From NCBI GenBank assembly GCA_964276515.1, contig OZ193909.1, forward strand, positions 20,956,001 to 21,020,000: a DNA stretch of 64,000 nucleotides, given 5' to 3'. The notes under the pieces are model-generated. The model saw only the letters and a list, made by a program, of their open reading frames with translations. It did no database searches and was not told where the DNA came from. The position numbers and the translations under genes were made by a program. This document shows, piece after piece, positions 3,809-61,462 of the stretch (position 1 is the first letter of the stretch; each line of letters opens with the position of its first letter). The DNA is from Gordius albopunctatus (lineage: Eukaryota).

Positions 3809-5232
3809 TAGTGTTGCGATCTCGTCTCGGTCTCGAAAGAAAAATCTCGTCTCGGGTTAGAAAAATCTCGATCTCGTCTTGACTCGACAAGAATTCTCGT
3901 CTCGTCTCGACTTTTAAAAATAATTATATCAAATATTTTTTTCTGACTCTCATAAATTATAATTATATAAGATATAGATGGGTCATAATGGAACAAAATA
4001 TTTATCTCAAACCCCAAGACACAAGCTAGATGGGTATCTTAAGGTAGGAAACATTATTAGATGTGTTATATACTACTTGCCTCGAAGGTATAAAGTTGCT
4101 AAACAATAACTTTTATTTCCTGGCTAAGCTCAATAAAAGGATAAAGTTAAATAATATCATAATATTTTAACATCATGAATTTATTGAGATCTTATTTAAT
4201 AACGTTAAAATAATGACAAAAATGAGAGAGTAAACTTTTGAAGATATCATCTTATATATAAAAATGAAACTATGTGTGTGTGTGTGTATATATATGCCGC
4301 CCAATTTTGGAAAACTACCAGACCCATTTGGCTCAAAATTTTACAGTTTATTTCTGACACTCCGGAGCAGGTTTTAAGATTTTTTCGAGCCAAATAGGTC
4401 CTGTAGTTTTCGAGTATTCGTACGCGTTGCACTGTATACGGGAATAGAACAATAGAAGTAGAACATATAGACATCAAACTTTATTTTTACTTCAATAACC
4501 GCTTTATCATCACATATGCCCTAAAATTCCAACATAATTTAATACACCCGGGAAAATGGCAAAACAACTTTTGTCGGGTTCATCTAGTTATTTATAACAA
4601 GTAATTATCTGAACATTGTAAATACAATAAAATAGGCATTTTTGTCGGAAGAACATAAAAGTTTTAAGATCTTACTTTAATTGCACACATATAACTTAAA
4701 ATATAAAATTTTCTTTAAAGCACAATTTACACTTCCCATTTTATTAGATTCATCCTTGGATACTGTGAAATGTTAGAGCAGCTTACTCTTTTTTGTGTTG
4801 GATCATGAACTTGTTGCGCATAAACTCATTATAGGTCTAAATAATTTTATATTATATAAGCTATACAAATAAGTAACAAATACTAAATTAATACTCAAAT
4901 ATCCTAAGAGCACTAACACTATGTTGTCTATTAAGATTATATTACAAATTTGAAATTTGCGCGAAGCGGATAATTAGGTGCGCAAGTAATGTACTATCAA
5001 AAGTTTCAAAATAATATTAATTTGCATTTAATACCCTAAATTTAAATCCCATAAAATAAAAATTCTTAATTAGCTAAATTATAAGACTTAATAGATAAAA
5101 ATTAAAGTCGAGATCTCGCCGATAAAATCTCGTCTCGATCTCGACTCAATTTTTCAAAATCTCGTCACATCTCGTCGCGAAAAACCGAGACGAGACGAGA
5201 CCGAGATTTTTCTCGGTTTTTCCGCATCACTA
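3809..5232. mobile_element. Non-autonomous hAT-type element
   Basis: Termini TAGTGTTGCG / CGCATCACTA; perfect 8-bp TSD GGCAAATT (3801-3808, 5233-5240); clustered subterminal TCTCG/CGAGA motifs. Confidence 0.85.
4250..4587 (+). mobile_element. Non-autonomous Helitron without cargo, nested in the hAT element
   Basis: 5' TC, 3' CTAG, inserted between A and T without TSD; (GT)n near the 5' end; subterminal hairpin; a second copy at 26882-30514. Confidence 0.8.
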
Positions 5233-5922: not shown

Positions 5923-7265
5923 ATGCAAAAACTTACGGAAGATAATTGGAAAGACGAATTAGAAAAACATCCATTCTTTAGAACTAAACCTTTAAAAGAA
6001 GATGAAAAACTTCCTGAACTATTTGAGGCTTTACAAGTTAGATTATAGACACGGTTATTCAATATTTAAAGGCTATAAAATATGAGGATGAAGAGGCAAC
6101 TTTAGTTGAAAGAGCCTTAGCTTATAAAGAAGATGGCAATTATCATTTCAAGAACAAAAATTATGATGCATCCATTAAAGCCTTTACAAAAGGTATTGAC
6201 CTAAAGTGTGATGACGATAAAATTACTTCTGTGCTATATTCAAATCGTGCCACTGCTCATTATAATCTAAGTGATATTAACATTTTACATATTTTATAAA
6301 TCAATATCTAGAAAATTTTAGATCCTGCCTTCTTGATTCAAAATCAGCATTAAATAAAGATCCTGCAAATTTCAAGGCCATCACAAAATGTGTTTTAGCC
6401 TGTCTCGAACTAAAATATTATGAAGAAGCCAAACTGTAATCAATGTTATATAATTTAACTCATTTATTCAAGCTTTTGCAGTAAAGGACTTAATTCAAGT
6501 AATATTCAGGATAAAGAGTTTTATGAATCAAAGCTTATTATTATTGAGGATAAATTATTAAAAATAAAAGAAATGAATGAAGTTAAAGAGAAGGAAAGAC
6601 GTAATAGAATATTTCTTAAAAAAAGCTTGCAATCTGCTTTTAAACAAAGAAACATAAAGTTAATGATGGGTGAGCTGAATGAGTCCTATTTAGATATAGA
6701 AGATGAAATAAATAAAGATAATGCTCTTTGGGATGCATTTATTAAAGCAGAAAATCCTTTTATGGCATCACCTCTGTCTATTTTAAATAATATCTCTCTT
6801 GAAACTATGCATGCTCACAAGGAAAAACAAAGTTACCTTTATTTAGAAGATAACTTAAACGCACACACTAATCATCAAGGCATTTTACATTGGGCTGTTT
6901 TATTTATGTATCCACAACATCAGCAAACAGATCTTATATCTGATTTTAGTGAAGAAGAAACTTTTGAAAGTCATATTAAACAAATGTTCCCTGAACAACA
7001 TGATTTGAATATGAATAGCCATCCTGATTGGAATTTAGAGAAGCAATATAATTTTAACTCAATAAATATATACTGGGAAGATAAATATAATAAAAAGTTG
7101 GTTAAAATTGATAAGCATAAAACATTACAGAATGCACTTTATCCTAATACACCTAACAAGCCTTCAATTTTTATTCAAGTCCCAATGTTAACCTTTATCA
7201 TTTTATTACGTGATTCAACATTTACAACTACCTATCTTAAAAAATATGATATCTTTAATAAATAG
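5923..7265 (+). CDS. TTC4: Tetratricopeptide repeat protein 4 (Cns1/Dpit47-like co-chaperone), at least 4 exons
   Basis: Spliced translation WKDELEKHPFF..EALQAIKYE..ALAYKEDGNYHFK..LYSNRATAHYNLKNFRSCL; C-terminal LHWAVLFMYP..QTDLISDFSE; GT-AG introns 6037-6071, 6271-6311, 6436-6472; start codon uncertain. Confidence 0.85.
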
Positions 7266-16600: not shown

Positions 16601-17764
16601 TTATAACAAATTTATTTTTGGATTTTTCAAATGTTCTTTATTAACATGCATCAATAGTATGTCAATAGCATAAGAAAGCACATTGGAATACCAAAAATTG
16701 TCATCATCCTTTAGCACTTTAAGCTCATATATATAAGGTAGATCACCTTGAGATCTACTTAAAAATCTATTATTAATCCATTTATTTTGTCTTTTGATAT
16801 ATTTTCTATTGGCATTAATTAAATTTTGTATACATAATTGTTGTAATTTGTGATTTTCTTCATTGTTTACGATAATTGGGCATAATTCTTTAAACCCAAT
16901 ATTTTGTATTAAACCATGTTTTTTCCCCTCAACCAAATTAATATCTTTATAAAAAGTTTTTAACTCCTCAATCATACCATTTTCCACCATCTTATACACC
17001 CTATTTTTGATTCTTTTTAATAATAAATCATCTGGACACGAGAGCCAAAGTATCAAAGCATTTTTAAAAAGCAAATTTCCACTTTTTCTATCATCACTTC
17101 CTTTTTGCCTTTTCAATATTGTGCTATGCTTTTGTCCTGTGATAACATAAATTTGTAAACTTCTTATTATCTTTCTCCTTTCATTGCAATTCAAGGTTGA
17201 TGCTCTTTCATGATCAAATTTATTTAATAGGTTGTATAGTGAATTTGTTGGAATATTATTTATATTGATTTCACCTAAATTTTCATATGGATCAAAGGGT
17301 TCTTCAGCCCCTTTAAAATATGTATCTAGTAATAACTTAAGATCGTGGTTAAAAATTGGGTCAATGTCCTTAGGTGATTTTAGTGGCTTTAAAGTAAAAT
17401 CCCACAAAAGGCTTTCAATATAATAATTTGTACCACCAACAATGAATGGTATAACATTCTTATTCAGCAAATTTTTAATAATTTGTGTTGCGTGTAATTT
17501 GTAATCAACCACTGTATAATGTTTTAAATTAGGATCTAATATATCAATCATATGATGCTTTACTAAAGATCTTTCTTCCAAAGACACCTTATTGGTAGTT
17601 ATATCTAAGCCTTTGTATAATTGCATAGAATCAGCATTAACTATTTCTCCTTTAAATTTTGTTGCTAATTCAATTGCTAACCTTGATTTTCCAATACCAG
17701 TTGGGCCAATAATAAAAACCATAATAGGTTCACGAAATATACTTTTTAAAAGATTTTGCCACAT
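16601..17764 (-). CDS. TRIT1: tRNA dimethylallyltransferase (IPP transferase), intronless, no visible C-terminal zinc finger
   Basis: GPTGIGKS P-loop, IVNADSMQLYKGLDITTNK, VGGTNYYIESLLW, RRKIIRSLQ, QNIGFKE, RKYIKRQNKWINNRF. Confidence 0.92.
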   Translation of the reverse strand: MWQNLLKSIFREPIMVFIIGPTGIGKSRLAIELATKFKGEIVNADSMQLYKGLDITTNKVSLEERSLVKHHMIDILDPNLKHYTVVDYKLHATQIIKNLLNKNVIPFIVGGTNYYIESLLWDFTLKPLKSPKDIDPIFNHDLKLLLDTYFKGAEEPFDPYENLGEININNIPTNSLYNLLNKFDHERASTLNCNERRKIIRSLQIYVITGQKHSTILKRQKGSDDRKSGNLLFKNALILWLSCPDDLLLKRIKNRVYKMVENGMIEELKTFYKDINLVEGKKHGLIQNIGFKELCPIIVNNEENHKLQQLCIQNLINANRKYIKRQNKWINNRFLSRSQGDLPYIYELKVLKDDDNFWYSNVLSYAIDILLMHVNKEHLKNPKINLL

Positions 17765-18130
17765 TAGTCATGATGATCCAAAAATGTTTAACTCGATAGA
17801 AACAAATAACAAGGGTCGTGATTCAGGATTAATCGCGTAGATAAGTTAGAGCGAGAAAATCTCTGGCCCCTTCGGCACCTCCAAGCAATTATTTAATATT
17901 CCTTAATCTAATTAATTCTAATTAATTTTTTTTTGGTTAAAAGTTTATTTTCACGAAACAAAGTTACATATTTATATATTTTAGCATATAACATACATAA
18001 TTATTTGGAAATAAACTTTGATTGATTAAAAAAAATAAGCGAAATAGAAAAATAAATAAAGGCATAAATTTTTTTATTTGGGACAAGTGACTTATTTATA
18101 TAAAATTTCCATTCTTTTATTTATGAACAA

Positions 18131-19386: not shown

Positions 19387-20947
19387 TTTTTTTAGAATTG
19401 ACATGCTTTATTAAATAAAAAGTATTAAATATTGAGCGGAATTGTTAAAAAGATACAAGAACAAAAATATTTATAAAAAAATCTTTAAAACACATTATCC
19501 GTATCTTCATCTTTGAGAATGGGCATTGAATCCATCAAAGAATAAAAATTAGATTTAGCGATCGCGATGACAATTGATTGTCGTAGTAAAAAACTATTTG
19601 ATATTTTATAAGGGGCGAGCGTTTATTGAGTTCTTTAAAAAAATTAATGCGCTCTTCCCAAACGTCCCTGAGCACGATGAGACGATAGGAATAAAAATCG
19701 AAATTTGGGATAAGGCTGAATATTTTAAGGATTTCTGATGCTCTGCTGATCCTAGGGGGTCGTTGTGAGTATCGTTGGAGGGGGCAAATAGGTCAATACA
19801 GGTGTAGTCCCATTTTAGGAAAAGGCATTTGTCCCATGGAATAAGTGACGAACCGTCCGGACGCATCCACCCTTCGAGAGAGGGATCTGAAAGTTCAAGG
19901 ATTGAAGGAACTTTTGCCCGTTTGAGGGCAGCTTGAAGCAGTGTATTTATTTTTTGGTGCCTACCATACCGGCTTTTGTTAAATTTACAATGCAGAGGGT
20001 GACGTGCTTCCTCATCTACAAGTGAATTACAAAGCCGGCAGGGGTATGGGGACGTGTATTTACAGCCCAAGCGGAGGGCTATATTGTAGGAAAGGGTAGG
20101 ATTCTCCAAAAACATACCCAAAAACTTACTAAGGTAAGCTTCAAGCCATTCATGACCGGATTGGTCGAAAGCCAATGACCTAAGATTGCAATGCTATTTG
20201 GCGTCGCATGTCGAGAGAATGTAAGCAACGGACCACGACACCAAACTTGCATCCAAATCTTTTTGAGCGTATGATTGTGGTATATTACCTCCTACATTGA
20301 CGTTCTCATTCCATAAGGATAGGGTTTGATTTATGGAGGGATTAAGTGGGAATGGGACAAGGTCGTTAGTATGATGTTTAAAAGATAGAGAGGAAGAAAT
20401 AAAAGCGACTAGGGAAATCGCAGATGGTGAGCGAATATCTAGACCACCGGACTTTGTGGGAAGCGTGGCTTGAAGCCAAGTATGGGTGTTAAAATAAATA
20501 TTTAAAATTGATTCAAGAGTGGATTTAAAAAAATTTTCATAGTCGGGTAAAACTTCTTTAAATAAAAAAGCTTGTGTGGAGCGGAAGCAGAATAAAATTT
20601 TGCTAATGTTTTAATAATTTTTTATAATGAAAAAGGAATGATGAGAGGGCATAGATTTAAAAATGTCTAATTTGGTTTTTTAAAAAAGAGAGGTTTTTGT
20701 CTAAAATTTTTTTAAGGCATTCAGGGCCCTCTATAGGTGCGCTTAAAACATACATATTGTCTTTTTTAATTTTGACAAAGTCAAAAAACTTTGGGTGAAT
20801 GGTATTCAAGTCAGAATATATTTCACTCTTAGAGCCGTTTAAACATAAGTTTAAAGTGGGGAAGAAAGCTTGTATTACTTCTAGTGCTTGGACTAGGTTG
20901 TCAGGGGTGCCAACAAGAGTGGCGTCATCTAGATACCAGACATTAAG
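19387..20947 (-). mobile_element. 5'-truncated CRE-clade non-LTR retrotransposon
   Basis: NVWYLDD, CRLC..HPLHC, MRPDG; 3' UTR and A tail match 56700-56797; gives the empty site for the 52338 insertion. Confidence 0.92.
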
Positions 20948-21443
20948 CGTATGGACTCCAGTGTTAATGGCAAAGCCCTTTGTAGTCCCCACCGATGTTC
21001 TAACGTACGTTCTATTTCCCTTTTACATATCTTTTATTGCTCTGACGTATACTTCTGGCACATTGTTTTCTTTAAGACATTTCCAAACTAAATTACGAGG
21101 AACTTTATCGAACGCTTTTTCTAGATCGATGAAACACATGTGCGAATCCTCTTCCCTTTCTTTAAACCGTTCCGTTAATCTTCTAACACTGTTTAGGGCG
21201 TCTGCTGTAGACCTCTCCGGCATAAATCTGAATTGGTTATCTCGAATTTGAACCAAACTCGGAAGCCGTTTTTCGATCACTTTTTCCCACACCTTGAAAT
21301 GTGACTCATAAGCTTTATCCCTCTGTAATTATTACAATCCTGAATGTTCCCTTTCATCTTGTATATCGGGATCATGTAGCTATCCCTCCACTCGTTAGGC
21401 ATTTTACCTGTTTTCAAGATATTGTTGAAAAGGTTGGCGAGGT
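20948..21443 (-). mobile_element. RTE LINE RT fragment joined to the CRE copy
   Basis: NQFRFMPERST.DA, HMCFIDLEKAFDKVPR. Confidence 0.85.
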
Positions 21444-21823: not shown

Positions 21824-24800
21824 CACTACCTACGACGGTCCCAAATCCGTGTGCAAAAAGTGGAGGGTTGGCGTCATGTCGGAAACCGGCTATAAAAATC
21901 AACTCCAAAATTTATGATAGTTTCAAACGAGATTTTACAAGAAAAGGCTAGGGCGTCCTCCACAAACGACGCGCACTGCATACCCCGCCCGTGCAATGTA
22001 AAAAATACACTAGGGTTACTGCCTAACTCACAACGAAGGCGGTTAAGGGAACTAGTTGTGGAAAGAATGCGAATTACGTGCTGGAATGTGGGAACGTTGA
22101 CGGGGAAGAGCATCGAGGTCGCACAGATGCTAAAAAGAAGAAAGGTACACATCGCCTGCCTACAAGAGACGAGGTGGAATGGAACGAAAGCTCAGGAATT
22201 AGTAGAAGGATACAAGCTTTTCTACAGTGGGTCATCAAATCGTAGAAACGGGGTCGGTATCGTTCTAAGTGAATCGTTCAAGGACAAGGTGGTGGAAGTA
22301 AAGCGTTGTTCCGACAGGCTAATGTGGGTGAAGATTGCAGATCAAGGGGGCCTCCTAACCGTTATGTGCGCGTATGCCCCCCAAATTGGATGTTTGGAAT
22401 CAGAGAAAGACATATTCTTCGATTCATTGGAAAAGGAAATACAAGGAATAGGACAGGAAGAAAGGCTACTTATTGGGGCAGATTTCAACGCTCACGTTGG
22501 GAAAGATCGCCTCGGGTATGAACGCAATCATGGAGGCTATGGGCATGGTCTGAAGAACAAAGAAGGGGAAAAACTTCTCCAAGTATCTCAAGCATATGAC
22601 ATGGCGATCGTTAACACCTATTTTCAAAAGCGCGAAGATCATATTGTGACCTATAGAAGTGGGAAGCATTTTAGTCAAATCGACTATTTGCTTATACGGC
22701 GAAAGGACTTATGGAGTATCAAGGATTGCAAAGTGATACCGGGAGAAGAAATCGCCAGGCAACATCGTCGCCTTGTTATGGATCTTGACAGAAGAGTATT
22801 TCCCGAAGGAAGAAAGTTCTATGAATCTCGAATTCGATACGAAAGGCTAAAGGATACGTCGACGAACAAAGAATACCATCAAAAAGCCTGCTCACTCTTG
22901 GGTGCAAGGAAGTTGCAAAGGGACGTAGACGACGATTGGGAGACGCTATCTAAGGACATTAAGGAAACAGCGATTCGTGTTCTAGGAAAGACCAAAGGAG
23001 GCAAAGCTATGAATAGGGAACTATGGTGGTGGGATCAATCGGTTAAAGATTTCATCGAAAGAAAGAAAAATCTATATAGACGGTGGCATAAATCAAAAAA
23101 GTCGGAGGATTATCAAGAGTACAGGAACGCAAAGAGGGCCGCAAAAAAGGCCATTGCAAAAGCGAAGAATGCCGCGTATATCGAGATGGCAAACAAACTG
23201 GATCATAAAGGGGGCGATAGGCTTATGTACAAATTGGCCAAGATAAGGGAGAAGAAAAGTCGCGATGTCGGAGTTCTTAAAATAGTCAAAAGCGAGAAGG
23301 GTCAAACCTTATTCAAGCCGAAAGAGGTGATGGAAAGGTTGAAAGGATATTTTAAGAAACTTATGAATATTGCAAACGACAAGGATTCCCTTCCCGAAAT
23401 TGAGCCAAATATAAATATAGTCGAACTCTTTCAGAAGGATGAAGTTAGAACACAAATGAACAAGATGCAAAAAGGAAAAGCAAATGGTCCAGATGGAATA
23501 CCTATGGAAGCATTGCACGGATGTCGTGAAGAAGGAGTCACCACCATGACGAACCTCCTTAACAAGATATTGGTAGAAGAGCGAATCCCTAATCAATGGA
23601 GAGCAAGCACGATCATACCATTATTTAAAGGCAAAGGAGACCCTCGGGACTGCGGCAATTACAGAGGTATCAAGCTAACTTGCCACTCCTTGAAACTTTT
23701 GGAAAGGATCTTAGTAACAAGGCTGAAAAGCGAGGTGGAAATATCGGCTAATCAATTCGGATTCGTGGCCGGCAAATCCACAATCGACCCAATCTTCGCC
23801 CTGAGACAAATGATGGATAAGTATGATGAAAAGAGGAAAGACCTACATATGGTTTTTATCGACTTGGAGAAAGCTTATGACACGGTCCCCCGCGACTTAA
23901 TATGGTGGTGCCTGAGAACACAAAATATCCCTGACGCATATATACGGCTTATGAAAAATATTTATGAAGCTTTAAACTCTTGCGTTAGGACGACAGTTGG
24001 AGACTCTAAACCTTTTCGGGTTAATATTGGATTACATCAAGGCTCTGCTTTAAGTCCCTTTTTATTTAATATAATTATAGACACGATAACGAGGGACTTT
24101 CAAAAGCCATCGCCATGGTGTATGCTATATGCCGATGATATAGTACTATGCAAGGAAACAAGGGAGAAGGTATTCGAAGAAGCAGAAAAGTGGTCAAAGC
24201 GCTTAGCTGGATATGGTTTAAAGGTCAACGATCGAAAAACGGTATACATGGAAATGAACGGTACAAGCACCCCATCGCTGGATGACCACCTAAAGTACCC
24301 AAAAGTAGACAGGTTTACTTACCTCGGCTCTATGCTACATCAAGAGGGAGGGTGCGCAACTGAAATCAATGCCCGGATTCAAAAAGGATGGCTTAAATGG
24401 CGAAGTATATCCGGTGTAATGTGCGACAAGAAAATGCCAATATGGTTGAAGAGCAAAGCTTAAAAATCCATCGTAAGACCGGTGTTACTCTATGGAAGTG
24501 AAACATGGGCAGTAAACATCACGGAAGGAAAGCTATTACAAGCCACGGAGATGAGAGTTATACGGTGGAGCTTGGGGTATACTAAGCTCGACCATACGAC
24601 CAATGACTTTCTCATGACAAAAATGGGTATTCAACCTATGGCGGACATGATTAACGAAAATCGGCTAAGGTGGTATGGGCATATACTAAGAAGGGACCCG
24701 GATGACGTAAATCGAATCGTGCTAGACATTAAAATACCGGGGAAGAGAGGAAGAGGACGACCCCGTGTCACGTGGAAAAGGCAAGTCGATAAAGTTATGG

Positions 24801-24909
24801 AAACTAAAGAGATTAGTCAAGACATGGCACTAACCCGGTCAAGATGGAAGAGACTCATCAAAACAAACCCCACCAATGTGGGACCAAATAACTGATAAAG
24901 AAGAAGAAG
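21824..24909 (+). mobile_element. Full-length RTE-clade LINE (APE + RT) with one premature stop at 24461-24463
   Basis: WNVGTL, LQETRW, GADFNAHVG, QIDY, HQGSALSP, YADD; (AAG)n tail; 19-bp TSD ATACATAGTGTTTATTCAA (21805-21823, 24910-24928). Confidence 0.97.
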
Positions 24910-25910: not shown

Positions 25911-26110
25911 TTCCAATAGCTGTTTGTCACACTAGGTGGTCAGCTTCTTTAGATATTTGGATTAGGGGTAATGCTCGGCTATTCCGGCCTAAAAACCGTG
26001 GTGACAATGTTATTTTTAATCTTTTTTGAAATAAGTGCCAGAGGCGGGATTGAACCTGCGAGCTCTTGCTTCAAAGACTAAACCTCTACCCACTAGGCCA
26101 CCACGCCCCC
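25911..26110 (-). mobile_element. tRNA-derived SINE with RTE-like 3' end
   Basis: Head with A box (TGGCCTAGTGG) and B box (GGTTCAATCCC); tail GAAGCTGACCACCTAGTGTGACAAACAGCTA similar to the RTE end at ~37955-37990. Confidence 0.75.
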
Positions 26111-26338: not shown

Positions 26339-26548
26339 GGGGCGTGTGGTAGTTGGTATAGGCTTTGCCTTTGAACAAGAGCTTGCAGGTTTAAATCCCG
26401 CTTTCATCACTTTTTTTAAAAAATATGTAGAATATATCACATCGTCAACACGACTGTCAGGCTTGGATAACCGAGCGTCACCCCTCATCCAAATGTCTAA
26501 AGAAGCTGACCACCTTAGTGTGGAAAACAGCTATTGCTATTTTTTTTA
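26339..26548 (+). mobile_element. Second, more diverged copy of the same SINE, head-to-head with the first
   Basis: Colinear similarity to the reverse complement of 25911-26110. Confidence 0.7.
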
Positions 26549-27248
26549 TAATTCTATTACCGAGTTAATACTGTTAAGTAGCTGAACGTTATTGTATTTT
26601 TAATAGAAATATGTTCCAAACGTGACTGGAGATACGTTTCGTTTTTTAGATTTGACGTTTGTTATTTCTGATCAATTAATTAATTTAATCTTATTTAATA
26701 CAGCAAAGGAATATAACAAGAAAAAAGGTATATATTGTTATATATAATAACGGCACGCCTGCATCTATAGGTTACAATGTGTTGGACTTGCAAATATAGA
26801 GATGCATAGAAAAAGTAATATCAAAAGGTGACATACGTCACTACAGGTACTTTTCTTCTAAAACATTTATGTAAAACAGAATCTTATATATAAAAATGAA
26901 ACTAGTGTGTATGCCGCCACCAATTTTGGAAAACTACCAGACCGATTTGGCTCAAAATATCACACTTTATTCCTGACACTCCGGAGCATTTATTAAGATT
27001 TGTTCGAGCCAAATAGGTCAAGTAGTTTTCAAGTTAGTTTGTTTAAGACAGCAAATCTGTCTTCGGATTCCCCCGGTTACGCAATTGTTTCGCCGGGGGC
27101 GTTTATTTGTTTTAATAACCCAATATACTACAACTACTACATATGTTAAATCAAAAAGCGTTGTAAAGACGACGAAAATTTAGGGAAAGACAGCGATATG
27201 AACAAAAGAGGGCAGGTATGCGTTAACACGTGAGGCGTAAAAAAGAGC

Positions 27249-27299
27249 GAATGAATATGGCGAGGTGCGTGGTGCTTTTATAGGTGCGTGTCACGTGTT
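27249..27299 (-). promoter_or_regulatory. Candidate Pol II core promoter (E-box, TATAAAA, TCATTC initiator)
   Basis: CACGTG; TATAAAA at 27282-27276; A of TCATTC at 27252, 30 nt from the TATA start. Confidence 0.5.
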
Positions 27300-27452
27300 C
27301 CATGGGATTTCGGTTCCGTTTTCCTCGGTTGTATCGCTGGGATTTTCGTCGTCCCAAAACCCCAGGTCGATCTCTTCTAAGTCGGGAAGCGTTGTTCCTT
27401 GTGGGGCTATGTTCGTTAATTGGTTTGGGACCGAGTATCTTTCGGGGGGCAT
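27291..27452 (-). CDS. Small acidic ORF (53 aa) directly after the pol stop codon
   Basis: TGA-ATG juxtaposition; MPPERYSVPNQLTNIAPQGTTLPDLEEIDLGFWDDENPSDTTEENGTEIPWNT. Confidence 0.4.
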   Translation of the reverse strand: MPPERYSVPNQLTNIAPQGTTLPDLEEIDLGFWDDENPSDTTEENGTEIPWNT

Positions 27453-29800
27453 TCAAGTGCGGGATGGTAGGTCCACTGGGTTGCTATCTGTTGCCACCCA
27501 TCGTAGGTTAAAGTGAAGTCGGATCAAGTGCGATAGGTCGTATGCTGCGACGAATTCGCTATGATATTCTTGATTGTCGGTGAGTTGGACCCGCCTTTTA
27601 GGAGAACGAAGTACGCGGTGCTCGAGTTTGTAAACACTTTTGGGAACCGGTACGCGTTGTTTATGGCATTTAGGTACTCATATATGGCGGCGAGGGTCTC
27701 GGTGGCCGTTATATGGTTGTCGTGAGGCCATGTTATCCCTATAGCGTCGGCGGCGTCCAGGAAGGTGATTGAGAAGTTGACGTCGTTCCATGAGATGCCG
27801 ATGTGCGATTCGGAGGCATCGGCGTAAATGACGGTGTCGTGCTCGTGATACAGTGGAACGATTTGTGGTAATAACGTCATACATCCTAGGAGTTTGGCTT
27901 GGGCCTCCTTCCTGTTGTGGGTAGACCCGCGTTTTGCTGCTATTGCGTAGAAAACGCTGAAAAGCCTGGGCATGCCGGTTAGATTGTAAAAGAAGTAGTT
28001 TAACACCCCCAATGCCTCCAAGAGTGAATTGTCTTCGGGGGGTTCCGAAGTGGCTGCGTAGAGGTGCAGGATGTCAGCAGAATATTTTAGGCGCTCCTGC
28101 ATTTCGGGCGAGCCTTTGATGGAGTGTGTCTCGAAGTCCAATATGAGCCCCAGGTACTCGAGTTTCGTCTCTGGACGCCAAGATGTCTTGTTGGTGTTTA
28201 TCGTGAGGCCACAGTCGGTGACTAGTGCTGCAATGTTACCTAGGTTCTTTGATACATCGTCGTCGTCCTTGGCGAAGATGAGAATGTCGTCAAGGTACAC
28301 GTTATAATTGCACTTTTGTACTGATTTTTTTGACCAGATCGGCCACGATGGTCTGCAGGACATAGGGTGAAAAGGAGGCACCCATTGGTAAGACGTTATA
28401 ATGGAACAGTTTGTCTCGCCACTTGTAGCCGCAATACTTTCTTGCGTTCTTATGTAGTGGTATGCTAAAAACGCAGCTTTAAGATCGATCTTGGCTGCGT
28501 AGTTAGCCCTTGCTAACTTCTTGGCAGTAAGGGGAATAGTAGCTAGCTTTACGGGCAGATGCTTGAAATTCTTTGAAGCATCTGATAAATTCGTAATTAC
28601 TCTAGGGTCCCCGTTACGCTTAGCGATGAACAATGTTGCCGATGTGATGGCGAGCGCTTGCGTCTCGGAAACAACTCCGGATTCCTTCATCATGGTAAAT
28701 AAGCTCGGGCTTCCTTTTGAGATTCTTTTACGGTGGCCTGGCCGGAACAGGCCGTCGTTGCGCTGTATTTTTGGTAAGTCCAGCGGGGGTTTGAAGCCTT
28801 CAAACGCCACTTTCATCGTGAAAGGGGACATCAACGGGTGTGGCTTTAGCCGCGTTGTTTTGATGCCCAAAGCCCCTGTGGGCCTAATGTTTGAACCCGG
28901 TTTTCCCCATTGGAAGATAGTCTTATGCCTATCCACAAGGGTCACTCGTGTGCCAACGTCGGTGGGTAGTTTCGGGTATTCCCGAGGCGGTAAAGGTGGG
29001 GGTTGCGCTGGCCCGTTGTCATCGTCGTCCGGTTGCGCGGGTGAAAAGATCTGGCGGCGGGTCTCCCGTAGAAAATTTTTAATTTGTTGCCACCACCTGG
29101 GAGAGCCCTGATCTTTATCACCATTGGGAGTCGGTAAACCCGAGGGCTCGTACTCCCACAGTTTGACGGTTTCTTTTATAAGTTTACGAACGCGTGGCAG
29201 GGCCGCGTTCTTTTGGAAGTCTCGGCCCGGCTTCTTGCCTCGGCCCCTGCCAGCTGCTGGAAAAAACGACTTTTTGGGAGATTTAGACGTGGCTATATCT
29301 ACGTTGCTGAAACCCATATCCGTGAGCCATGTAGTATCGTGCTTGGCTGCTGTGGCCAAATTGTATTTGATGGCTAGGCATAGCGTTTTAAGTTGCTTAT
29401 CGTGTGTGACGAGACTTTCATAGGCGAGGTTGGGAGGCACACTTTTGACATCTCGATGGCGTATTTTCCCTCGTGTCTATCGCGTTTTTGAACGCGCTGG
29501 TCTGGGTCCCTTAGGAGCTCCTCTAGACCTTGGGTGTGTTTTCGTATGTCGTCACAAATGGCAGCTGGAGTTTTAGGAGGTTCGGGCGCTGGTACGATTT
29601 GAACCGTTGAGGGCATAGTCATTGGGGCCATAAAAGGCGGTGGCCCCGGTTCTGAGAGCCTGTTAGTTAATGACGACATTGAGCTCTCCAGCATCGCTCT
29701 AAATGAGTCGATTTGCCGTTGATTCGCTCTGTTTTGTTCCCTCTGAAGTTCAAATAATTGAGCTACTAGGTCCGTCGAGCCCGCACCGGGAACCCCTGAT
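27453..29800 (-). mobile_element. DIRS/Ngaro-related retroelement with hepadnavirus-like motifs, copy 1: gag-like ORF + RT + RNase H, frameshifted
   Basis: KIDLKAAF, (shifted frame) LPMGASFSPY, VYLDD, GLTINTNK, EYLG, IYADAS, HITATETLAA, (shifted frame) WVATDSNPVDLPSR*; no recombinase or integrase seen. Confidence 0.85.
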
Positions 29801-30514
29801 TTGAATATACAGTTCTTTAGTAAAAAAGTGTATCACTTATAGTATTTTCTAAAACGTAATGCGTGTACGTAGTGTAGTGTGATAAATGTAGGCATGTGCT
29901 GCGGAAAATGGAAACTTTTTACGATTTGAAGCATTAAATCAAAGTCATTTTTTGCTTATTTTTCACGTCAATTATTATTATAGGACGGTCGTGTCCCCTC
30001 CTGCGTGGCTAAATAAATTAAAAAATCTCATTTTATCATTTTTGCGCGTTAAATAAGGAGAAAAATGAAAATACTTTTAACAAAGTACCAATAAATGTTG
30101 ATATATCTGAGTTCTTCGGACGTTATTAAGTTCAGAATTAAAAGTTTTATTCAGAAACAAATAATTATAATTATGATATTGTTTCTTAATTACAAAAAAT
30201 TGCTTGAAGGGCCAGGGGGCCAAAGATTTTTTTCTTGGGGGGGGGGGGGGGCAGGTTTTCTCTCTTGGGTGGGGTTGGGCCTTGGATCTCTTTAACTATT
30301 TGTTTAAAAAATTTTGCATAATAAACACTTACCAATTATATTTGATATATTCTTAATCTATTATACGGAAATAGAACAATAGAAGTAGAACATATAGTCA
30401 TCAAACTTTATTTTTACTTCAATAACCGCTTTATATTTATATATGCCCTAAAATTCCAACATAATTTAATACACCCGGGTAAATGGCAAAACAACGTTTT
30501 CCGGGTTCATCTAG

Positions 30515-30743
30515 CATGGGCGTACGCAGGTTTTTAATTAGGGGGGGGGCAGAATTTAAAAAAAAATTTGATTAATCAAAGATTTTCCTGAGAGCAAAAA
30601 AAAGTCTCGACATCCAAAATTTTGGCATAGGGAGGGGCAGTGGCTAATTAGCGAGGGGCAAAACATAATTTTTTTTTAATTTTTAAGGGTTTTTGTATTG
30701 AAAAAATGTTTTATTTTAAAATCCCCCCCTGCGTACGCCCATG
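30515..30743. mobile_element. hAT-type MITE inserted at the Helitron 3' terminus
   Basis: 16-bp TIR CATGGGCGTACGCAGG; perfect 8-bp TSD TCATCTAG. Confidence 0.9.
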
Positions 30744-35121: not shown

Positions 35122-36459
35122 TTATCCACTTTGTCTAACAGGATCAATAGACTTATGAAACTTTGTCACTTTGGCCAAGCATCGTTTAATTTGATATAAC
35201 TTTCTTGCAATTAATGGCATACAAGAATTTCGGTATGGTTCATTAAAAGCCAAGTTGATGTAGAAGGAGGAGCTCACGTATATAAATTGTAGCATGGTTA
35301 AGGATATGTATATAGGAGCTAACGTAGACCTTGAGTACCTTTCACGTAATATTTTTTGTACCATTAGGGCCAAATTTAGAGGTAACATGAGAAAGACAAA
35401 TTCCCAAGTTAGAATTAGCAATGTTCTCCAATGTTGTTTGTTCTCCAGGGCTCTTGATGTAGATAATCTGCGCGCCTGATAAGTAGTATGTTGTTCCAAA
35501 CTTACTCCTCGCACTAAGTTTTCACAATCTATAACGCTTGGGGTAACTTCTTTGACAACACCCTTATTTTTAGGATGCAGCATTATACTAATACTCTTTC
35601 TGCTAGTTACATTTATTTTAGATATTAGCCTCTTTTTATGACTGAAAAATGATTTTGTTTTGACAATAATAAGGATGGTGAAGGGCAAAATGTTTACTAA
35701 CAATTCTCTACATATTTGGTAAGCGTTCCATATTGTTCCAATGTTACAATCATTACTGTAAAACATATTAGGCCACTCATAGTTGTAAAGATAAAATTTT
35801 CTACATTTTGAAGTAACAATAGTAATGTTTAAAGATTTATTATTTTCGCCGTGTCTTATAAAACATTCGTCGCTGCATATTAATATTCTTTTAACTTCAT
35901 ACGAAAAATAAGTAGGGAGGTACCAGATTATACAGTATATAAAAGCAAATGACAACACCTTATATACTCTCGACATTGTTACCCAAGATTTGTATTTAAA
36001 CGGATATTTCAAGGCTATAAGTTGATTGGTAAAAAGAATTAAAAATAACCAAAAACTAAAAGATATCAATGGTTTTATAATTGGATAATTGTAGTTTGCG
36101 ATGTAGGTTGCCCAGGCTTTACTATTCCACACGTGATTTTTCAAACCATCTCCGTACACTTTTAACAAAGGATCCACTATGAAGAATAAGGAATTCACAA
36201 AATTCACAATATAAAATAGGGTTAGGAGAAACTGATTAACAAAATTGCGTTTGGTTGTAGTTGTGGGCATATCTTCGCTCGATTTTTTGGCTACATAGAC
36301 TCCTAATATATTCCCGGTTACTCCACTGGCAAGTAAAACAACGCTGATTATTTGATTAAAAGTATTTAATGGAGTATTGTGGTATATGTCAAACTGTTTA
36401 AACGAAAAACAACGTTCTTCCATTGAATTGTTATTTTGGCACCAAATTTTGTCACCCAT
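35122..36459 (-). CDS. Divergent rhodopsin-family (class A) 7TM GPCR, intronless
   Basis: About seven hydrophobic segments; TM1 GVTGN; TM3 end NQLIALKYPFKY (DRY position); TM6 FLMLP; TM7 SFYINLAFNEPYR. Confidence 0.8.
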   Translation of the reverse strand: MGDKIWCQNNNSMEERCFSFKQFDIYHNTPLNTFNQIISVVLLASGVTGNILGVYVAKKSSEDMPTTTTKRNFVNQFLLTLFYIVNFVNSLFFIVDPLLKVYGDGLKNHVWNSKAWATYIANYNYPIIKPLISFSFWLFLILFTNQLIALKYPFKYKSWVTMSRVYKVLSFAFIYCIIWYLPTYFSYEVKRILICSDECFIRHGENNKSLNITIVTSKCRKFYLYNYEWPNMFYSNDCNIGTIWNAYQICRELLVNILPFTILIIVKTKSFFSHKKRLISKINVTSRKSISIMLHPKNKGVVKEVTPSVIDCENLVRGVSLEQHTTYQARRLSTSRALENKQHWRTLLILTWEFVFLMLPLNLALMVQKILRERYSRSTLAPIYISLTMLQFIYVSSSFYINLAFNEPYRNSCMPLIARKLYQIKRCLAKVTKFHKSIDPVRQSG

Positions 36460-36811
36460 TTCATGCTATACAATTAAAACATTTCAAAGTTTTTGTAGGA
36501 TAATTTTCTATGTCAAATGGCTTTTTAAATAATTCGTTAAATTAATGGAATTTTGAATGTAAATCAAGTTAAATACAAGTTTTAAGAAATCGCGCCAACC
36601 TTTGAATATAATTGTATTAACCAATAAGTTGGGAATGAAAAATTATTCAACGTATACGTAGGTAGATGAAACCCTATAGGGCTATGACATAATTAATTAG
36701 CATTCAATGATCAAAATAGTATTTTATTCAGCCAAAAAATTTATCGATAATTGAGAGGTAGAATATGATAAGATGACGCAGATTACATACTTAAAAAATA
36801 TTGACTATAAG

Positions 36812-49227: not shown

Positions 49228-52200
49228 TCATTTTTTAACATCTGTGAACCCTAATTTACAATCTTGAAAGTTACAAATTATCTTTAATTAAAAATTATCA
49301 ATAGCCCTTAATTTTTGGTATGGTGCAAGTTTGGATCTAAACCATATTCTTACAACTTTATATAACAATCCATAAATCCCTTAATATCTATCCAATGATT
49401 CCAAATTAAGACATACTACATTTGTCTCATAAAGATTTACACTTCAAATCATTTAACCAATCTATTCAATTCATTATAACCAATATAAAAAATTGTCATC
49501 AATCCACTTTATCCACTATGTCATCTATTCCTATTCACATTGCATCCAACACATGCAAGTGTCTATCCCCCAAAGTTTCAGCTCGACAACATTAAGAAGT
49601 CCAAACATTCAAACAACAATCAAGCAAATTACTGAGAAAGACTCACAACCACACCCATTATTTTCAACTTGATCCCTACTATTCAAAGCAAACATTCATT
49701 TACTCAGAAACTCTTTACAAAAAAACAAACAATTACCTCACCCAATCTTTCTCTCTAACATCATCACTACTATTCAAAGCAAACTGAACCCTCTACTTAA
49801 TAACCTAGAAACCACTTACAGTATTTCAATCATTTATACATTTCTTATCACTATTTTATTAACATCCATAGTTTATTTTTTTTGCACATATTTAGACCTA
49901 AAATTATATACCCAAAAATTAAAAATTATATACAATATCTTATCAGGCAACTTTTTAACAATTACAACTTACCTAACCAAGGTAACAATTTTTTTTTTAA
50001 AAAACAACTGCAATGCCACTTACTCTATCCTTAAGGTTGTCCTTTATCCTTCCACTCATAATTACTCAGAGTCTTACAATAAATCATCAGTTTTTACATG
50101 AATAAATTCTTTTCTTTGTTTGATAAAATTCATATACAACATATTAAATGGTCCTTTTAAAAGCCCTATGCCCCTTGTGTCATCGAAATATCTCATTTAA
50201 CAAAAAGAATTGTTTTTACAACATGGCCCTGTCACCAATAAATGCCCCTCCTCGGGGAAGCTCGCTCCCCCAAACACTACATGGCCACCATCAACCTTAA
50301 TATTGGAAGATAACATTATTCTCAGTCCCTCTGGTACTGATATTCCTAATCTAATACCTCATCAAACCTACTATACCACAAATGACATGACATGGAGTAC
50401 AGCCTTTTTATCTCAAACATTCCCACCAACCATATCCAGAATTCCAAGGGGGGCCCGGGCGTGCATGCAACAGTTTTTAATAAACTTACTTAACAATATT
50501 ATTTCCCTCCCTCAGAACCTTTCCTATTGGGAGAAACTATTTAAATTCTCTTTTTACATTTTATCCATTCCTCAAGACAAAGAAGCAAATATCACTCATA
50601 ATATTAAACAATCAGTTTTAAAGTTCGACAGTCAAAACAGCCCTCCAGCATATAAAATTGAGAGAAAGGAATCCCACATATTAACTCCCAAACAAAAAGC
50701 GAATATGATCTCTAGAAAAATCCACACTTTCAACATAAAAGGTGCAATCAGATTTCTTGAAGAAGACAATTCATTTCTGAGTCCTTCACAAAAATCATAC
50801 GAATAAATGGTTCTCAAACACCCCCAGAGTCTATCGTCTACTTACCTATCGCCCTCGCAACCTTCAGATATTGCTTTTAAGTCACCAGAAATTCGAGATG
50901 CCATCTTATCCTTTCCCATGGATTCTGCAGGTGGTCTCGACGGCATAAAACCAATTTTTTTAAAAGATCTTATAACAATTGATAATAATAACTCCTCCAT
51001 CTTATTAGACTTACTCACCAAATTTTGTAACCTTTTAGTCAATGGGAGTATACCTAAAGAAATAACGCCCATAGTCTTTGGAGCTAAGCTTTTAGCTATT
51101 AGGAAGGCCGACAATTCAGCCAGGCCTATCGCTATCGGCGGTGTTTTTCGAAGAATTTTTTCTAAATTAATTTGCTCGGCGATCAAACCAATATTGACCC
51201 CAACTTTAATTCCGCATCAACTAGGCTTTGGGGTCAAAGGAGGGTGCGAGATAGCTACCCATGCCGCACGCTTAGCCCTGGAACACCTCCCACCGGGTGA
51301 CTCCTTTATAAAACTGGATTTTAAAAATGCTTTCAACAGCATTCGCCGCACTGCTTTCATTAATGAATTTATCAAACTGTTTCCCCACTACACCAACTAC
51401 ATCATTTTAAGTTAGGATGCCCTTCGATTTTGAAATTTGGAGAATTCTTCATCGAATCCGCAGAAGGGATCCAACAAGGCGATCCTCTAGGCCCCCTTTA
51501 TTCTGCTTGGCCATAAATCACCTAATTAACGAAATTAACAAACACTGTAAAATTACTCTTAATGTCTGGTATCTTGATGACGCCACTCTTGTTGGGACCC
51601 CTGACAACCTAGCCCAAGCACTAGTTGTAATACATGCTTTTTTCCCCACTCTAAACTTATGTTAACGCCTCTAAAAGTGAAATATATTCTGACTTGGATA
51701 ATATTCACCCAAAGTTTTTTGACTTTGCCAAAATTAAAAAAGACAATTTGTATGTTTTAGGCACACCTATCGGGGGACCCCAGTGCCTTAAAAAATTTTA
51801 GACAAAAATCTCTCTTCTTTAAAAACCAAATTAGACATTTTTAAATCTATGCCATCTCATCATTCTTTTTATATTATAAAAAATTATTACAACATTAGCA
51901 AAATTTTATTCTGCTTCCGCTCTACGCAAGCTTTTTTATTTAATGAAGTTTTACACGACTATGAAAACTTTTTTAAATCCACTCTTGAATCAATTTTAAA
52001 TATTTCCTTTAACACCAATACTTGGCTTCAAGCCACACTTCCCACAAAATCCGGTGGCCTTGGTATTCGCTCACCATCTGCGATTTCCCTAGCCGCCTTT
52101 ATTTCTTCCTCTCTATCTTTTAAACATCATATTAACGACCTTGTCCCATTCCCACTTAATCCCTCCATAAATCAAGCCCTATCCTTATGGAATGAGAACG

Positions 52201-52799
52201 TCAATGTAGGAGCTAATATACCACAATCATACGCTCAAAAAGATTTGGATGCAAGCTTGGTGTCGCGGTCCGTTGCTTACCTTCTCTCGACATGCGACGC
52301 CAAACAGCATTGCAACCTTAGGTCATTGGCTTTCGACTAGTGTTGTAAAAACGGCTGGCTGGTTTTTCCCAGCGTATTGCTAAGCTTAGTTGTTGGCGTT
52401 TTTTTTCACCCAACCCTATCAGTGTTAGGTGAATTTTCTTGGGAGGGCTTTGGCGTTTTCATAAAAAACACCCAAAGCGTTTTGGGTGTTTTTTTGTGGG
52501 CCACCCTTGGCGTTTAGGTTTGGGTGTATTAAACACCTAAAGGGTTTGGGTGGATAATATATTTAACCTTTTGGTTTGGTATTGGTCGTTTTGGGTTGGG
52601 CATGCAAATATATCAATTTGTTTGTATTGTTCGTCATATTTGCTGTATTTAGATTTAGTTAATGAACTTTTAATTTAAGAAAATAAAAATAGATGTATCA
52701 TGACGTCACTGATTGGAAACTTTTCCCATTGTGACGTCATAGTGAAAAGTATTATAATCTAATCTCTAGTAAATTATAGTTAATTATATTTTTGTGAAG

Positions 52800-53492
52800 T
52801 TTTGCCCCCCCCCTATTTTTTACCCTCTTTCTGATGTGGGGGAAAGGGGGGGGGGATGGTGGGTATTTTGCCCCCCCCCCTTTTATTTTTTACCCTCTTT
52901 CTGATGCAAGGGAAGGGGGGGGGGCATGGTGGGTATTTTGCCCCCCCCCCTAATTTTTTACCCTCTTTCTGATGCGGGGGAAAGGGGGGGGGCATGGTGG
53001 GTATTTTGCCCCCCCCCCCTAATTCTTTACCCTCTTTCTGATTCCGGGGTGAGGTGGGAGGGGTTGATTCGCCCCTTTTCTTATTTTTTATCCTATTTCT
53101 CAGCCGGGGGGGGGGGCCGGAAAGCTCTTTCTAACCCTTTCAAAATATTTTTTTGAATTTTCCCGGTCACAGTGGTGACAAATGTCTTGGAAACTTTTCC
53201 CATTGTGACGTCATAGTGAAAAGTATTATAATCTAATCTCTAGTAAATTATAGTTAATTATATTTTTGTGAAGTTTTGCCCCCCCCTTTATTTTTTACCC
53301 TCTTTCTGATGCAGGGGAAGGGGGGGCATGGTGGGTGTTTTGCCCCCCCCCCCTATTTTTTACCCTCTTTCTGATGCGGGAGAAGGGGGGGGTGGTGGGT
53401 GTTTTGCCCCCCCCCCTATTTTTTACCCTCTTTCTGATGTGGGGGAAAGGGGGGGGGGGGATGGTGGGTATTTTGCCCCCCCCCTTTATTTT
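52800..53492. repeat. ~65-bp G-tract/C-tract minisatellite in the element arms (inverted array at ~55400-55575)
   Basis: Unit TTTTGCCCCCCCC..TTTTACCCTCTTTCTGATGCGGGGGAAGGGGGGG.CATGGTGGGT repeated in two blocks. Confidence 0.9.
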
Positions 53493-53493
53493 T

Positions 53494-55310
53494 ATGTTGT
53501 AATGGAGTTTGAGGAGGTGAGATACGTCGTATGTGGCTACGAAGTTTGCAATGATCGATTCCAGGATAGGTGAGTTTGACCCTCCTTTGAGTAGGACGAA
53601 ATAGGCTGTGGTGGAGTCGGTGACGACCTTTGGGTAGTTTGCCCCATTGTGGATTGCGTGGAGGTAGGCATAGATTGCGGCAATCGTCTCTGTGGCGGTA
53701 ATGTGTCCTTCGTTTACCCATTCCAGCCCTATTGCTCGTGCTGCGTCCTTGAAAGTGATGGAGAAGTTTTGCCCTTCCCATGAGATGCCTATGTGTTCGT
53801 CGGAGGCATCGGCGTATATTGTGGTGTCGTGTTCCCTGTGTAGGAGTATAATTTGTTTGAGGATCTCTAAACATCCCTGTAGTTTAGCTTGGGCTGCTGG
53901 CCTGTCATGGCTCGTGACGTTGTTGTTTGCGGCCATCGCGTAGAAAGTGCTGAACAACCTCGGCATTCCTGTGAGGTTGTAGTAAAAATAATTGAGCACT
54001 CCTAAGGCTTCCATCAGCGTGTAGTCTGTTATCGGCGTTGGTGTTGATAAGAAGAGGTGAAGTATGTCCGCTGCATACTTCAATCGTGTTTGAGTGCTGG
54101 TGGATACTTTAATCGAATGCGTGCGAAAGTCGAGTATCAGTCCCAGGTATTCGATGGTGTTTGATGCCCATACTGATGATTTACTGGTGTTTATGGTAAG
54201 GCCCCAGTCTTTGGCCATTTCTGCGATGTTTCCCAGGTCTTCTGTGACGTGGTCTTCGTCCGCGAAGATTAAGATATCATCGAGGTATACGTTGTAGTTG
54301 CAGTGTTTTACTGCCTTTTTAACCAGATCTGCGACTATTGTTTGGAGTACAAAGGGCGAGAAGGAGGCCCCCATAGGTAGGACTTCGTAATGGTATAGTT
54401 TGTCTCGCCACTTGTAGCCGCAGTATCGTTTGGCCTTCTTGTGTAAGGGTATGCTAAAGAACGCGGCTTTCAAATCTATTTTAGCCGCGTAATTGGCTTT
54501 TGCCAACTTTTTTGCTGTGAGGGGGATGGTAGCCAACTTGACTGGTAGATGCTTAAAATTCTTTGAAGCCTCTGACAGATCAGTGATAACGCGGGCATCC
54601 CCATTTTGTTTAGCTATGAAGAAGGTTGCGGAGGTGATGGCGAGCGATTGAGTCTCGGATACAACCCCCGCTTCTTTCATAGTGGTGAAGTAAGCTGGAC
54701 TTCCCTTTGAGATACCTTTACGCCTTTCTGGTCTGAATAGAACGTTGTTCCTCCTAATCTTAGGGAGGTCAAGTGGCGGTTTGAAACCTTCAAACGCTAC
54801 TTTCAGCGTGAAGGGCGACATTAGAGGATATGGCTTTAGCCTTGAGGTCTTAATGTCGAGAGGCCCTTTGGGCTTGTTTGCTACGCTTTGTTTGCCCCAT
54901 AGGAAGATGGCTTTGTGCCTATCCACAAGGTCCGGGATATGTCCCGAACCGGTGTCCCCGCCGAGGGATTCGTCATCGGGGTTAGTGCGATCGCTAACGT
55001 CGGTGGGTATCTTTGGATACTCTCGTGGCGGTAATGGAGGGGGCTGCGCTGGACCATCGGAGTTGTCTTCATCTGCCGGATGCGCTGGGGAAAAGATCTG
55101 GCGGCGGGTCTCCTTTAAAAAGTTTTTGATTTGTTGCCACCACCTAGGAGAGCCCGAGTCTTTATCCCCGTTGAGAGTCGGTTTGCCCGAGGGCCCGTAC
55201 TCCCACCGGCTGACGGTGTTGCGTATTAGCTTACGAACGCGGGGCAGGGGCCGCGTTCTTCGGCAAGTGTCGGCTCGGCTTTTTGCCTCTGCCCCTGCCA
55301 GCTCCTGGAA
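53494..55310 (-). mobile_element. DIRS/Ngaro-related RT-RNase H, copy 2: uninterrupted frame, truncated at both ends
   Basis: KQNGDARVITDL, KIDLKAAFFSIPL, LPMGASFSPFVLQ, VYLDD, EYLG, IYADAS, HITATE, VVTDST; homologous to copy 1. Confidence 0.9.
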
Positions 55311-56797
55311 AAAGAAAGGTTTAAAAAGAGCTTTCCGCCCCCCCCGGGTGAGAAATAGGGTAAAAAATAATAAGAGGGGCAAATCACCCCCTCCCCCCTC
55401 ACCCCGGAATCAGAAAGAGGGTAAAAAATTAGGGGGGGGGGCAAAATACCCACCATGCCCCCCCTTTCCCCGCATCAGAAAGAGGGTAAAAAATAGGGGG
55501 GGTCAAAACACCCACCATGCCCCCCCTTCCCCTGCATCAGAAAGAGGGTAAAAAATAAAGGGGGGGGGGCAAAACTTCACAAAAATATAATTAACTATAA
55601 TTTACTAGAGATTAGATTATGATACTTTTCACTATGACGTCACAATGCGAAAAGTTTCCAATCAGTGACGTCATGATACATCTATTTTTATTTTCTTAAA
55701 TTAAAAGTTCATTAACTAAATCTAAATAATACAAACAAATTGATATATTTGCATGCCCAACCCAAAACGACCAAGACCAAACCAAAAGGTTAAATATATT
55801 ATCCACCCAAACCCTTTAGGTGTTTAATACACCCAAACCTAAACGCCAAGGGTGGCCCACAAAAAAACACCCAAAACGCTTTGGGTGTTTTTTACGAAAA
55901 CGCCAAAGCCCTCCCAAGAAAATTCACCTAACACTGATAGGGTTGGGTGAAAAAAAACGCCAACGCTTGCAGGCGACCAATAGAAACCCTTGGTTTTTTA
56001 CAACACTACTTTCGACCAATCCGGACATGAATGGCTTGAAGCTTACCCTAGTAAGTTTTCGGGTATGTTTTTGGAGAATCCTACCCTCTCCTACAATATA
56101 GCCCTCCGCTTGGGCTGTAAATACACGTCCTCATACCCCTGCCGGCTTTGTAATTCACTTGTAGATGAGGAAGCACGTCACCCTCTGCATTGTAAATTCA
56201 ACAAAAGCCGGTATGGTAGGCACCAAAAAATAAATACACTACTTCAAGCTGCCCTCAAACGGGCAAAAGTCCCTTCGATCCTTGAACCTTCAGATCCCTC
56301 TCTCGAAGGGCGGATGGGCCCGGACGGTTCGTCCCTTATCCCATGGGACAAAGGCCTTTTCTTAAAATGGGACTACACCTGTATAGACCTTTTTGCCCCC
56401 TCCAACGATACTCACGACCCCCTTGGATCGGCAGAGCATCGGAAATCCTTAAAATATTCAGCTTTATCCCAAACCTCGATTTTTATTCCTATCGTCTCAT
56501 CGTGCTCAGGGACATTTGGGAAGAGCGCTTTAATTTTTTTTAAAGAACTCAATAAACGCTCGCCCCCTTGTAAAATATCGAATAGTTTTTTACTACGACA
56601 ATCAATTGCCATCGCGATCGCTAAATCTAATTTTTATTCTTTGATGGATTCAATGCCCATTCTCAAAGATGAAGAAACGGATATTGAGTTTTAATCATTT
56701 TTTTTTATATAAATGTTTTCGTTCTTGTATCTTTTTATTAATTCCACTCAATATTTAATACTTTTTATTTAATAAAGCATGTCAATTTAAAAAAAAA

Positions 56798-61273: not shown

Positions 61274-61462
61274 TAGTGTTTTAAAAAGGGCTGGTTTTTT
61301 TAGTCGACTAAACATAAAGAGACCAAAGATTTTTTGGTGTCTATTTTCATAGTCGATTACATGGCTTAGTCAAAATTTGAAAAAGAGACCATAGTCAATT
61401 GTTAGTCTTGCTTAAACCAAAGGTCGACCAAACAAAACTTACCAGCAGTTTTTACAACACTA
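61274..61462. mobile_element. hAT-type MITE with the same termini as the RT-carrying element
   Basis: TAGTGTTTTAAAAA..GTTTTTACAACACTA; perfect 8-bp TSD TACAAGAT. Confidence 0.85.

Follow-up and report, generated by a model that had tools for sequence, protein, structure and literature searches.

A degenerate reverse transcriptase (RT)-RNase H element was characterized in a 64,000-nucleotide (nt) window of the genome of Gordius albopunctatus (GenBank assembly GCA_964276515.1, contig OZ193909.1, positions 20,956,001 to 21,020,000; coordinates below count from the first letter of the window). Trees and motifs support placing its family on the side of hepadnaviruses and HEART retroelements (reportedly described by Gong and Han in 2018) rather than among ordinary DIRS elements. 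Two copies were found on the minus strand: copy 1 (27035..29809), which is degenerate and 5′-truncated, and copy 2 (53494..55313), which is truncated at both ends and retains an unbroken frame through the RT and most of the RNase H. The element likely encodes no integrase, and with slightly less than even confidence the two copies are read here as members of a HEART-like lineage that has no integrase of its own and enters chromosomes by capture.

The motifs named in a preliminary description of this DNA were confirmed on the minus strand of copy 1, as were the RT, the RNase H and a distance of about 424 nt between the RNase H and the Helitron-like sequence that ends at 27034. KVAFEGFKPP (28784-28813) and ESGVV (28670-28684) lie before the RT motifs LPMGASFSP (28365-28391) and YLDD (28286-28297); the RT with its pre-RT segment spans 28100..28837, and copy 1 was matched by Pfam RVT_1. 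The RNase H (27459..27830) is closed by WVATDSNPVDLPSR at 27459-27500, followed by one further residue and a stop; its third acidic position is not kept, and its end, NPVDLPSR, resembles the RNase H ends of hepadnaviral and HEART-like proteins. Behind the stop lies an acidic tail segment of 53 codons (27294..27452, minus strand), which matches in position the acidic C-termini of the Gordionus proteins P0001 and P0039 and, by Pfam, is neither methylase nor recombinase. A YbjN match on copy 1 (E 1e-4) had no counterpart on copy 2 and was judged to be due to chance.

The copy 1 motifs are spread over three frames, with frame changes near 29460, 28470, 28330 and 27555; two compensating changes within the RT shift 28305-28478 to another frame, and that near 27555 falls within the RNase H. 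All four were spanned, with 0-3 differences and no gap, by short-read contigs (two runs of one study, possibly of the source sample; the best 16 of about 40,300 pieces and 15 of 155 joints were viewed, and contig depths were not used as copy number). Sibling contigs about 90% alike showed a one-base gap in three of the four stretches. Because the short-read contigs reproduce the frame changes, the breaks are genomic and not assembly errors. Copy 1 is a genuine, decayed, low-copy RT element, with a GC content of 49.5% against 35.5% for the window.

Upstream of the RT, the N-terminal region (28838..29476, minus strand) is in frame with the RT and is coding where copy 2 overlaps it. No homolog of it, core or capsid proteins included, was found among proteins of 357-1138 aa, and its AlphaFold model was unusable (pLDDT 35). 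The 5′-most open frame (29377..29809, minus strand; first Met at 29694) appeared by eye coiled-coil-like and then Pro-rich and had no Pfam match; from its position, a gag-like role may be proposed. This frame stays open until 29809, where a very high-copy repeat begins. Copy 1 is therefore 5′-truncated; a unit of about 2.8 kb is present, as reported earlier, but the truncation leaves its compactness and completeness undemonstrated.

Copies 1 and 2 are 70.5% identical in nucleotide sequence over 1814 columns and 67% identical in amino acid sequence. Differences at the first, second and third codon positions numbered 7/81, 9/81 and 29/81 in the N-terminal region, 26/193, 13/192 and 102/190 in the RT, and 24/105, 17/105 and 57/104 in the RNase H. 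Purifying selection acted between the two copies, and the concentration of differences at third positions indicates that the region upstream of the RT is coding and in frame with it.

For the phylogenetic analyses, copy 2 represented copy 1 in all trees, hepadnavirus rows were natural records picked by motif, DIRS labels were given by the methylase motif rather than by a verified recombinase, and groups were named after the first FastTree run. Seven rows without an RT slice and 16 rows, for run time, were left out of the RT tree, and three without an RNase H slice were left out of the RT+RNase H tree. The RT tree (57 rows) placed the family in a group of 24 rows that also contained unnamed metagenomic RTs, hepadnaviruses and one Ngaro-like row (support 97/92). 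The RT+RNase H tree (46 rows) united it in a clade with 7 hepadnaviruses and 6 unnamed RTs (95/92), the inner order of which was not resolved. When the hepadnaviruses were taken out together with two long rows, it continued to join three unnamed HEART-like RTs (96/85), so the placement is not merely a hepadnaviral long-branch pull. By eye, the motifs RVI.D[FL]S and PMG...SP..LQ fit rows of nackednaviruses, hepadnaviruses and HEART elements rather than those of DIRS, PAT or Ngaro. In copy 2, the residues following the RT PxG are a close match to nackednavirus rows in the accessible part of PMC12691608, and several unnamed RTs resemble by eye the Ixodes HEART rows shown there. The hepadnavirus/HEART affinity suggested in the preliminary description thus has the support of trees and motifs alike. 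A separate set of RT-RNase H proteins without methylase (P0048, P0049, P0050, P0112, P0156 and P0177) adjoins the hepadnavirus-side group in the RT+RNase H tree (96/95).

The best protein match was P0001 of the nematomorph Gordionus sp. (35%, E 2.6e-72), the next of the 37 matches having E 1.8e-17; a larger search gave 11,752 matches at E ≤0.001, three of which, all from Gordionus, reached 1e-30. P0001, P0038 and P0039 of Gordionus reach the RNase H end and then continue into a short or acidic tail, and no methyltransferase was found after the RNase H in these three proteins or in copy 1. Relatives with DNA context were not found in viral contigs. Of 85 metagenome loci, 80 were kept; by motif, most of these were Gypsy-type, and two short fragments, L007 and L021, were HEART-like. 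The motifs of four genome-contig loci placed them outside the family, three matches to a sequence pattern turned out not to be RTs, a search with an Ngaro sequence pattern found none, and the best 120 of 154 matches of a profile search included no hepadnavirus or named HEART. When the copy 2 model was compared by fold with viral structures, the matches were RT-RNase H proteins of every kind, with an unnamed protein at the top, and the search did not discriminate. The unnamed RT-RNase H proteins P0129, P0096, P0130, P0128, P0114, P0091, P0190, P0060, P0061 and P0136 are encoded on environmental contigs of 1.4-10 kb; like L007 and L021, they have Pro/acid-rich N-termini and no methylase. Two unnamed environmental RTs matched the hepadnaviral PF00336 above the Pfam cut-off. 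The unnamed environmental proteins and the two fragments may represent undescribed HEART-like diversity.

The surroundings of both copies bear on how they reached the chromosome. Copy 1 interrupts a miniature inverted-repeat transposable element (MITE), which we take to be Helitron-like from its end features and which consists here of a 5′ part (26881..27034, plus strand; TC start and subterminal inverted repeat) and a 3′ part (30362..30514, plus strand; hairpin and CTAG end). An uninterrupted copy lies at 4249-4587; compared with it, the 3.3 kb that hold copy 1 stand in place of about 19 nt. At its 5′ end, copy 1 is cut by one or more very high-copy AT-rich repeats (29810..30361), starting TA/CAGT and presumably Tc1-like, at the start of which contig depth rises far higher; no second terminal repeat was found for them within the window. 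Another MITE (30515-30743; 16-nt terminal inverted repeats and an 8-bp target-site duplication (TSD)) is inserted at the Helitron-like 3′ end.

Copy 2 is the cargo of a hAT-type foldback element (52338..56008) with TAG...CTA ends, an 8-bp TSD and long inverted arms of tandem sub-repeats, the outer 240 nt of which are 99% complementary; copy 2 adjoins these sub-repeats. The foldback element interrupts a non-long terminal repeat (non-LTR) element, whose uninterrupted twin at 19387-20951 shows the empty site near 20164. This non-LTR element, which has an RT and, at the C-terminus, a Cys/His-rich segment, is present in copies at 19387-20951, 50201-52337 and 55984-56795, one being split by the foldback element, and a further matching terminal 14-mer of the foldback element is located at 61462. 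Both copies of the family in the window (2/2) therefore sit within non-autonomous DNA transposons. The absence of a TSD at copy 1 together with the missing 19 nt of Helitron-like sequence, and the loss of both ends of copy 2, are in keeping with capture.

The 3′ non-coding end of copy 1 (about 255 nt, 27035..27290, minus strand) carries AATAAA at 27102-27107 and hairpins at 27070-27099 and 27045-27063. The folding z-score was -3.5 in a segment picked after inspection and +0.6 for the whole 271 nt. This end had no Rfam match, and a hammerhead-like reading of the hairpin was discarded, the CUGANGA core being absent by eye. No direct-repeat pair or long direct repeat was found in 27035-27290, an end that may itself be short. 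The short 3′ end is not private to copy 1, since 27078-27448 is matched by a sibling contig at about 84% similarity.

These features could be accommodated as follows. An intact source would express one RNA and one long protein comprising the N-terminal domain, RT, RNase H and acidic tail, and from this RNA the RT would make extrachromosomal DNA; the 3′ hairpins may act as a priming or packaging signal. Helitrons, hAT-type elements or repair events would then capture pieces of this DNA, or of chromosomal copies, which would subsequently decay.

Integration, priming and capsid functions were searched for. None of 84 open reading frames (ORFs) of at least 55 aa in 24.5-35 kb and 47.5-58 kb matched Phage_integrase, by which the DIRS protein P0109 was detected as a control (E 9e-9); two weak Integrase_H2C2 matches (E 0.054 and 0.0097) both lay outside copies 1 and 2. 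Two single-sequence tyrosine recombinase queries against six frames of the window gave nothing under E 1, a weak result, as the controls cross-matched only at about 0.01. No recombinase-like frame overlapped the 970 nt upstream of the RT in copy 1, and no inverted terminal repeat (ITR) or internal complementary region (ICR) was found around copy 1, the 5′ end of which is cut off. A downstream recombinase of the DIRS, PAT or Ngaro type is unlikely, since no ORF matched Phage_integrase and the sibling shares the short 3′ end. The earlier report that recombinase, LTR pair, poly(A) and TSD are absent held for copy 1, none being found. The same is true of the terminal-protein domain: a hidden Markov model (HMM) built from 8 hepadnaviral P N-termini gave best E values of 0.34 (P0001) and 0.52 (copy 1), a search that a divergent domain could escape. 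Copy 1 had no PF00242 match, and no circular joint was seen among the 15 of 155 short-read joints viewed. The earlier suggestion of an episomal pararetrovirus-like agent thus gained no direct support, neither a circular junction, a terminal protein nor core or capsid homology being found in these searches.

Several results weigh against a HEART-like lineage that spreads by capture. After Gordionus, the next matches by plain score were mostly DIRS-type and Gypsy RTs, and an ESM Atlas structure search with P0001 ranked DIRS-type clusters first. The family proteins had no PF00336 match, a result that adds to the negative terminal-protein search. The trees, which gave the hepadnavirus-side grouping in the kind of RT and RNase H phylogeny proposed in the preliminary description, contained no VIPER, TATE, PAT, named HEART, nackednavirus or PnNV rows, and no VIPER protein was among the matches of the searches. 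With the RT alone, a clade with DIRS was not rejected (p-AU 0.063), and the Ngaro-like row P0030, on a long branch, fell inside the RT group of the family. The last two results, with a pre-RT segment and an RNase H length that are DIRS-like, would suit descent by deletion from a standard DIRS, PAT or Ngaro element, with loss of the downstream methylase, recombinase and terminal repeats. With RT+RNase H, however, a clade of the family with the 15 methylase-motif DIRS rows was rejected (p-AU 0.0017), the Gordionus relatives likewise finish in a short tail without methylase, the sibling has the same short 3′ end, and the motifs are by eye unlike those of the DIRS, PAT and Ngaro rows. Such a derivation, the case that the preliminary description had set against its own reading, is very improbable given the lack of methylase in the family and the 3′ end shared with the sibling.

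A recombinase upstream of the RT is harder to discount, because both copies lack the 5′ end and the VIPER/TATE recombinase lies upstream of the RT. In the available parts of PMC6681497, the RT/RNase H of VIPER/TATE elements is the third ORF, behind the recombinase and about 950 aa long in T. cruzi and L. braziliensis, and its RNase H groups with hepadnaviruses. Copy 1 and its relatives could thus belong to a VIPER/TATE-type tyrosine-recombinase retrotransposon of an animal, the roughly 830 codons being the third ORF and the gag and recombinase having been lost by 5′ truncation. Consistent with this, the frame of copy 1 is open to the 5′ junction, exactly where an upstream recombinase would sit, the length and RNase H affinity are comparable, and an ESM Atlas feature search with P0001 gave the top places to unnamed clusters with a Euglenozoa label (based on 3 members with a phylum) and rank 15 to hepadnaviral P. 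Against it, no pair of B1/B2 direct repeats was found in the 3′ end of 255 nt (which may itself be short), no recombinase-like frame overlaps the 970 nt upstream of the RT, and VIPER/TATE matches outside kinetoplastids are scarce in the same parts of PMC6681497. This explanation is considered unlikely, if a serious competitor. Of the earlier proposal that the element is naturally integrase-less, the failure to detect a recombinase stands, and the natural absence is not shown, copy 1 being 5′-truncated.

Entry by capture, as suggested earlier, fits both copies in the window. The nesting of just two copies, in a window so rich in repeats, can also be a matter of chance. Further, short-read contigs indicate several sibling subfamilies in the genome, which could mean self-mobility. 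An element that lacks an endonuclease, is always chromosomal and propagates itself might prime its RT, by means of the 3′ hairpins, at DNA breaks or single-stranded transposon intermediates and be truncated at the 5′ end on insertion. The 3′ end, present in copy 1 and shared with the sibling, the lost 5′ end, the missing TSD, the purifying selection seen between copies and the occurrence of several subfamilies within the genome would all agree with this, but both ends are missing from copy 2, and copy 1 is broken on its 5′ side next to another repeat and not next to the Helitron-like MITE. Moreover, target priming is not known from RNase H-bearing LTR-class RTs. Self-propagation of this kind is therefore judged distinctly unlikely.

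Beyond capture of a HEART-like lineage, the family could represent an undescribed RT lineage, lacking integrase and terminal protein, between DIRS-like transposons and hepadnaviruses, existing as an episome or naked virus of nematomorph-like worms and fossilized only by transposon capture; this is a doubtful, though conceivable, extension. If true, the lineage and the unnamed metagenomic RTs of 2-10 kb would mark a large pre-hepadnavirus grade. In the literature searched, no report of such an element in Nematomorpha was found; the original HEART definition lay outside that coverage and could affect membership and novelty. Were the element instead of the VIPER type, it would lie far outside kinetoplastids, which was likewise unreported in the literature searched. 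The family has several recent siblings in one animal genome, its 3′ end is defined and its capture junctions are clear, and it would make HEART mobility testable from assemblies and reads.

Other features of the window include a near-intact endonuclease-RT non-LTR element at 21896-24895 (an 855-aa frame, one stop and a 143-aa frame), with a related copy at 57997-60401, and a short repeat in two inverted copies (26037-26109 and 26339-26553) that has tRNA-like stretches, high contig depth and, by eye, the look of a short interspersed element. Long uninterrupted host frames at 16604-17767 and 6459-7262 were assigned by Pfam to a tRNA isopentenyltransferase and a TTC4/Cns1 wheel-domain protein, and an intronless 447-aa ORF (35122-36465) looks by eye like a seven-helix receptor and had no Pfam match at E 1.

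Among known systems, DIRS1-like, PAT and Ngaro elements share with the present element an LTR-class RT followed by RNase H, a similar pre-RT segment and the lack of a protease; they differ in that neither methylase nor downstream recombinase was found in the element, and no ITR/ICR or split repeats were seen. Identity with Kuafuortervirus/Troyka was rejected, as those have LTRs and an integrase. VIPER/TATE elements are alike in having the RT/RNase H as the last ORF, no methylase described and an RNase H near hepadnaviruses (available parts of PMC6681497); they differ by their split direct repeats and by a tyrosine recombinase encoded upstream of the RT. Neither was seen in copy 1, whose 5′ part is lost. 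With HEART elements, proposed as the source of hepadnaviruses in the accessible part of PMC12691608, the element shares a hepadnavirus-side RT, similar motifs after the RT PxG and the occurrence of copies in invertebrate genomes (accessible parts of PMC12691608, PMC11551314 and PMC12440569), and the mobilization of HEART-type elements is stated to be unresolved in the part of PMC12440569 available. The seven Ixodes tick rows in the available HEART material have PFG and W[SA][YH][IL]DN, whereas the family of copies 1 and 2 has PMG and VYLDD. From Blubervirales (hepadnaviruses, nackednaviruses and proto-nackednaviruses) the element differs in that a terminal protein or G[LVI]Y priming motif was not detected, in YLDD instead of YMDD, in a longer RNase H, and in that no core homolog, DR1/DR2 or circular form was seen. 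It shares with them the RLVVD-type and PMG...SPF motifs, a joint RT+RNase H clade, an RNase H that ends in NPAD.PSR near the end of the protein and, probably, the lack of an integrase.

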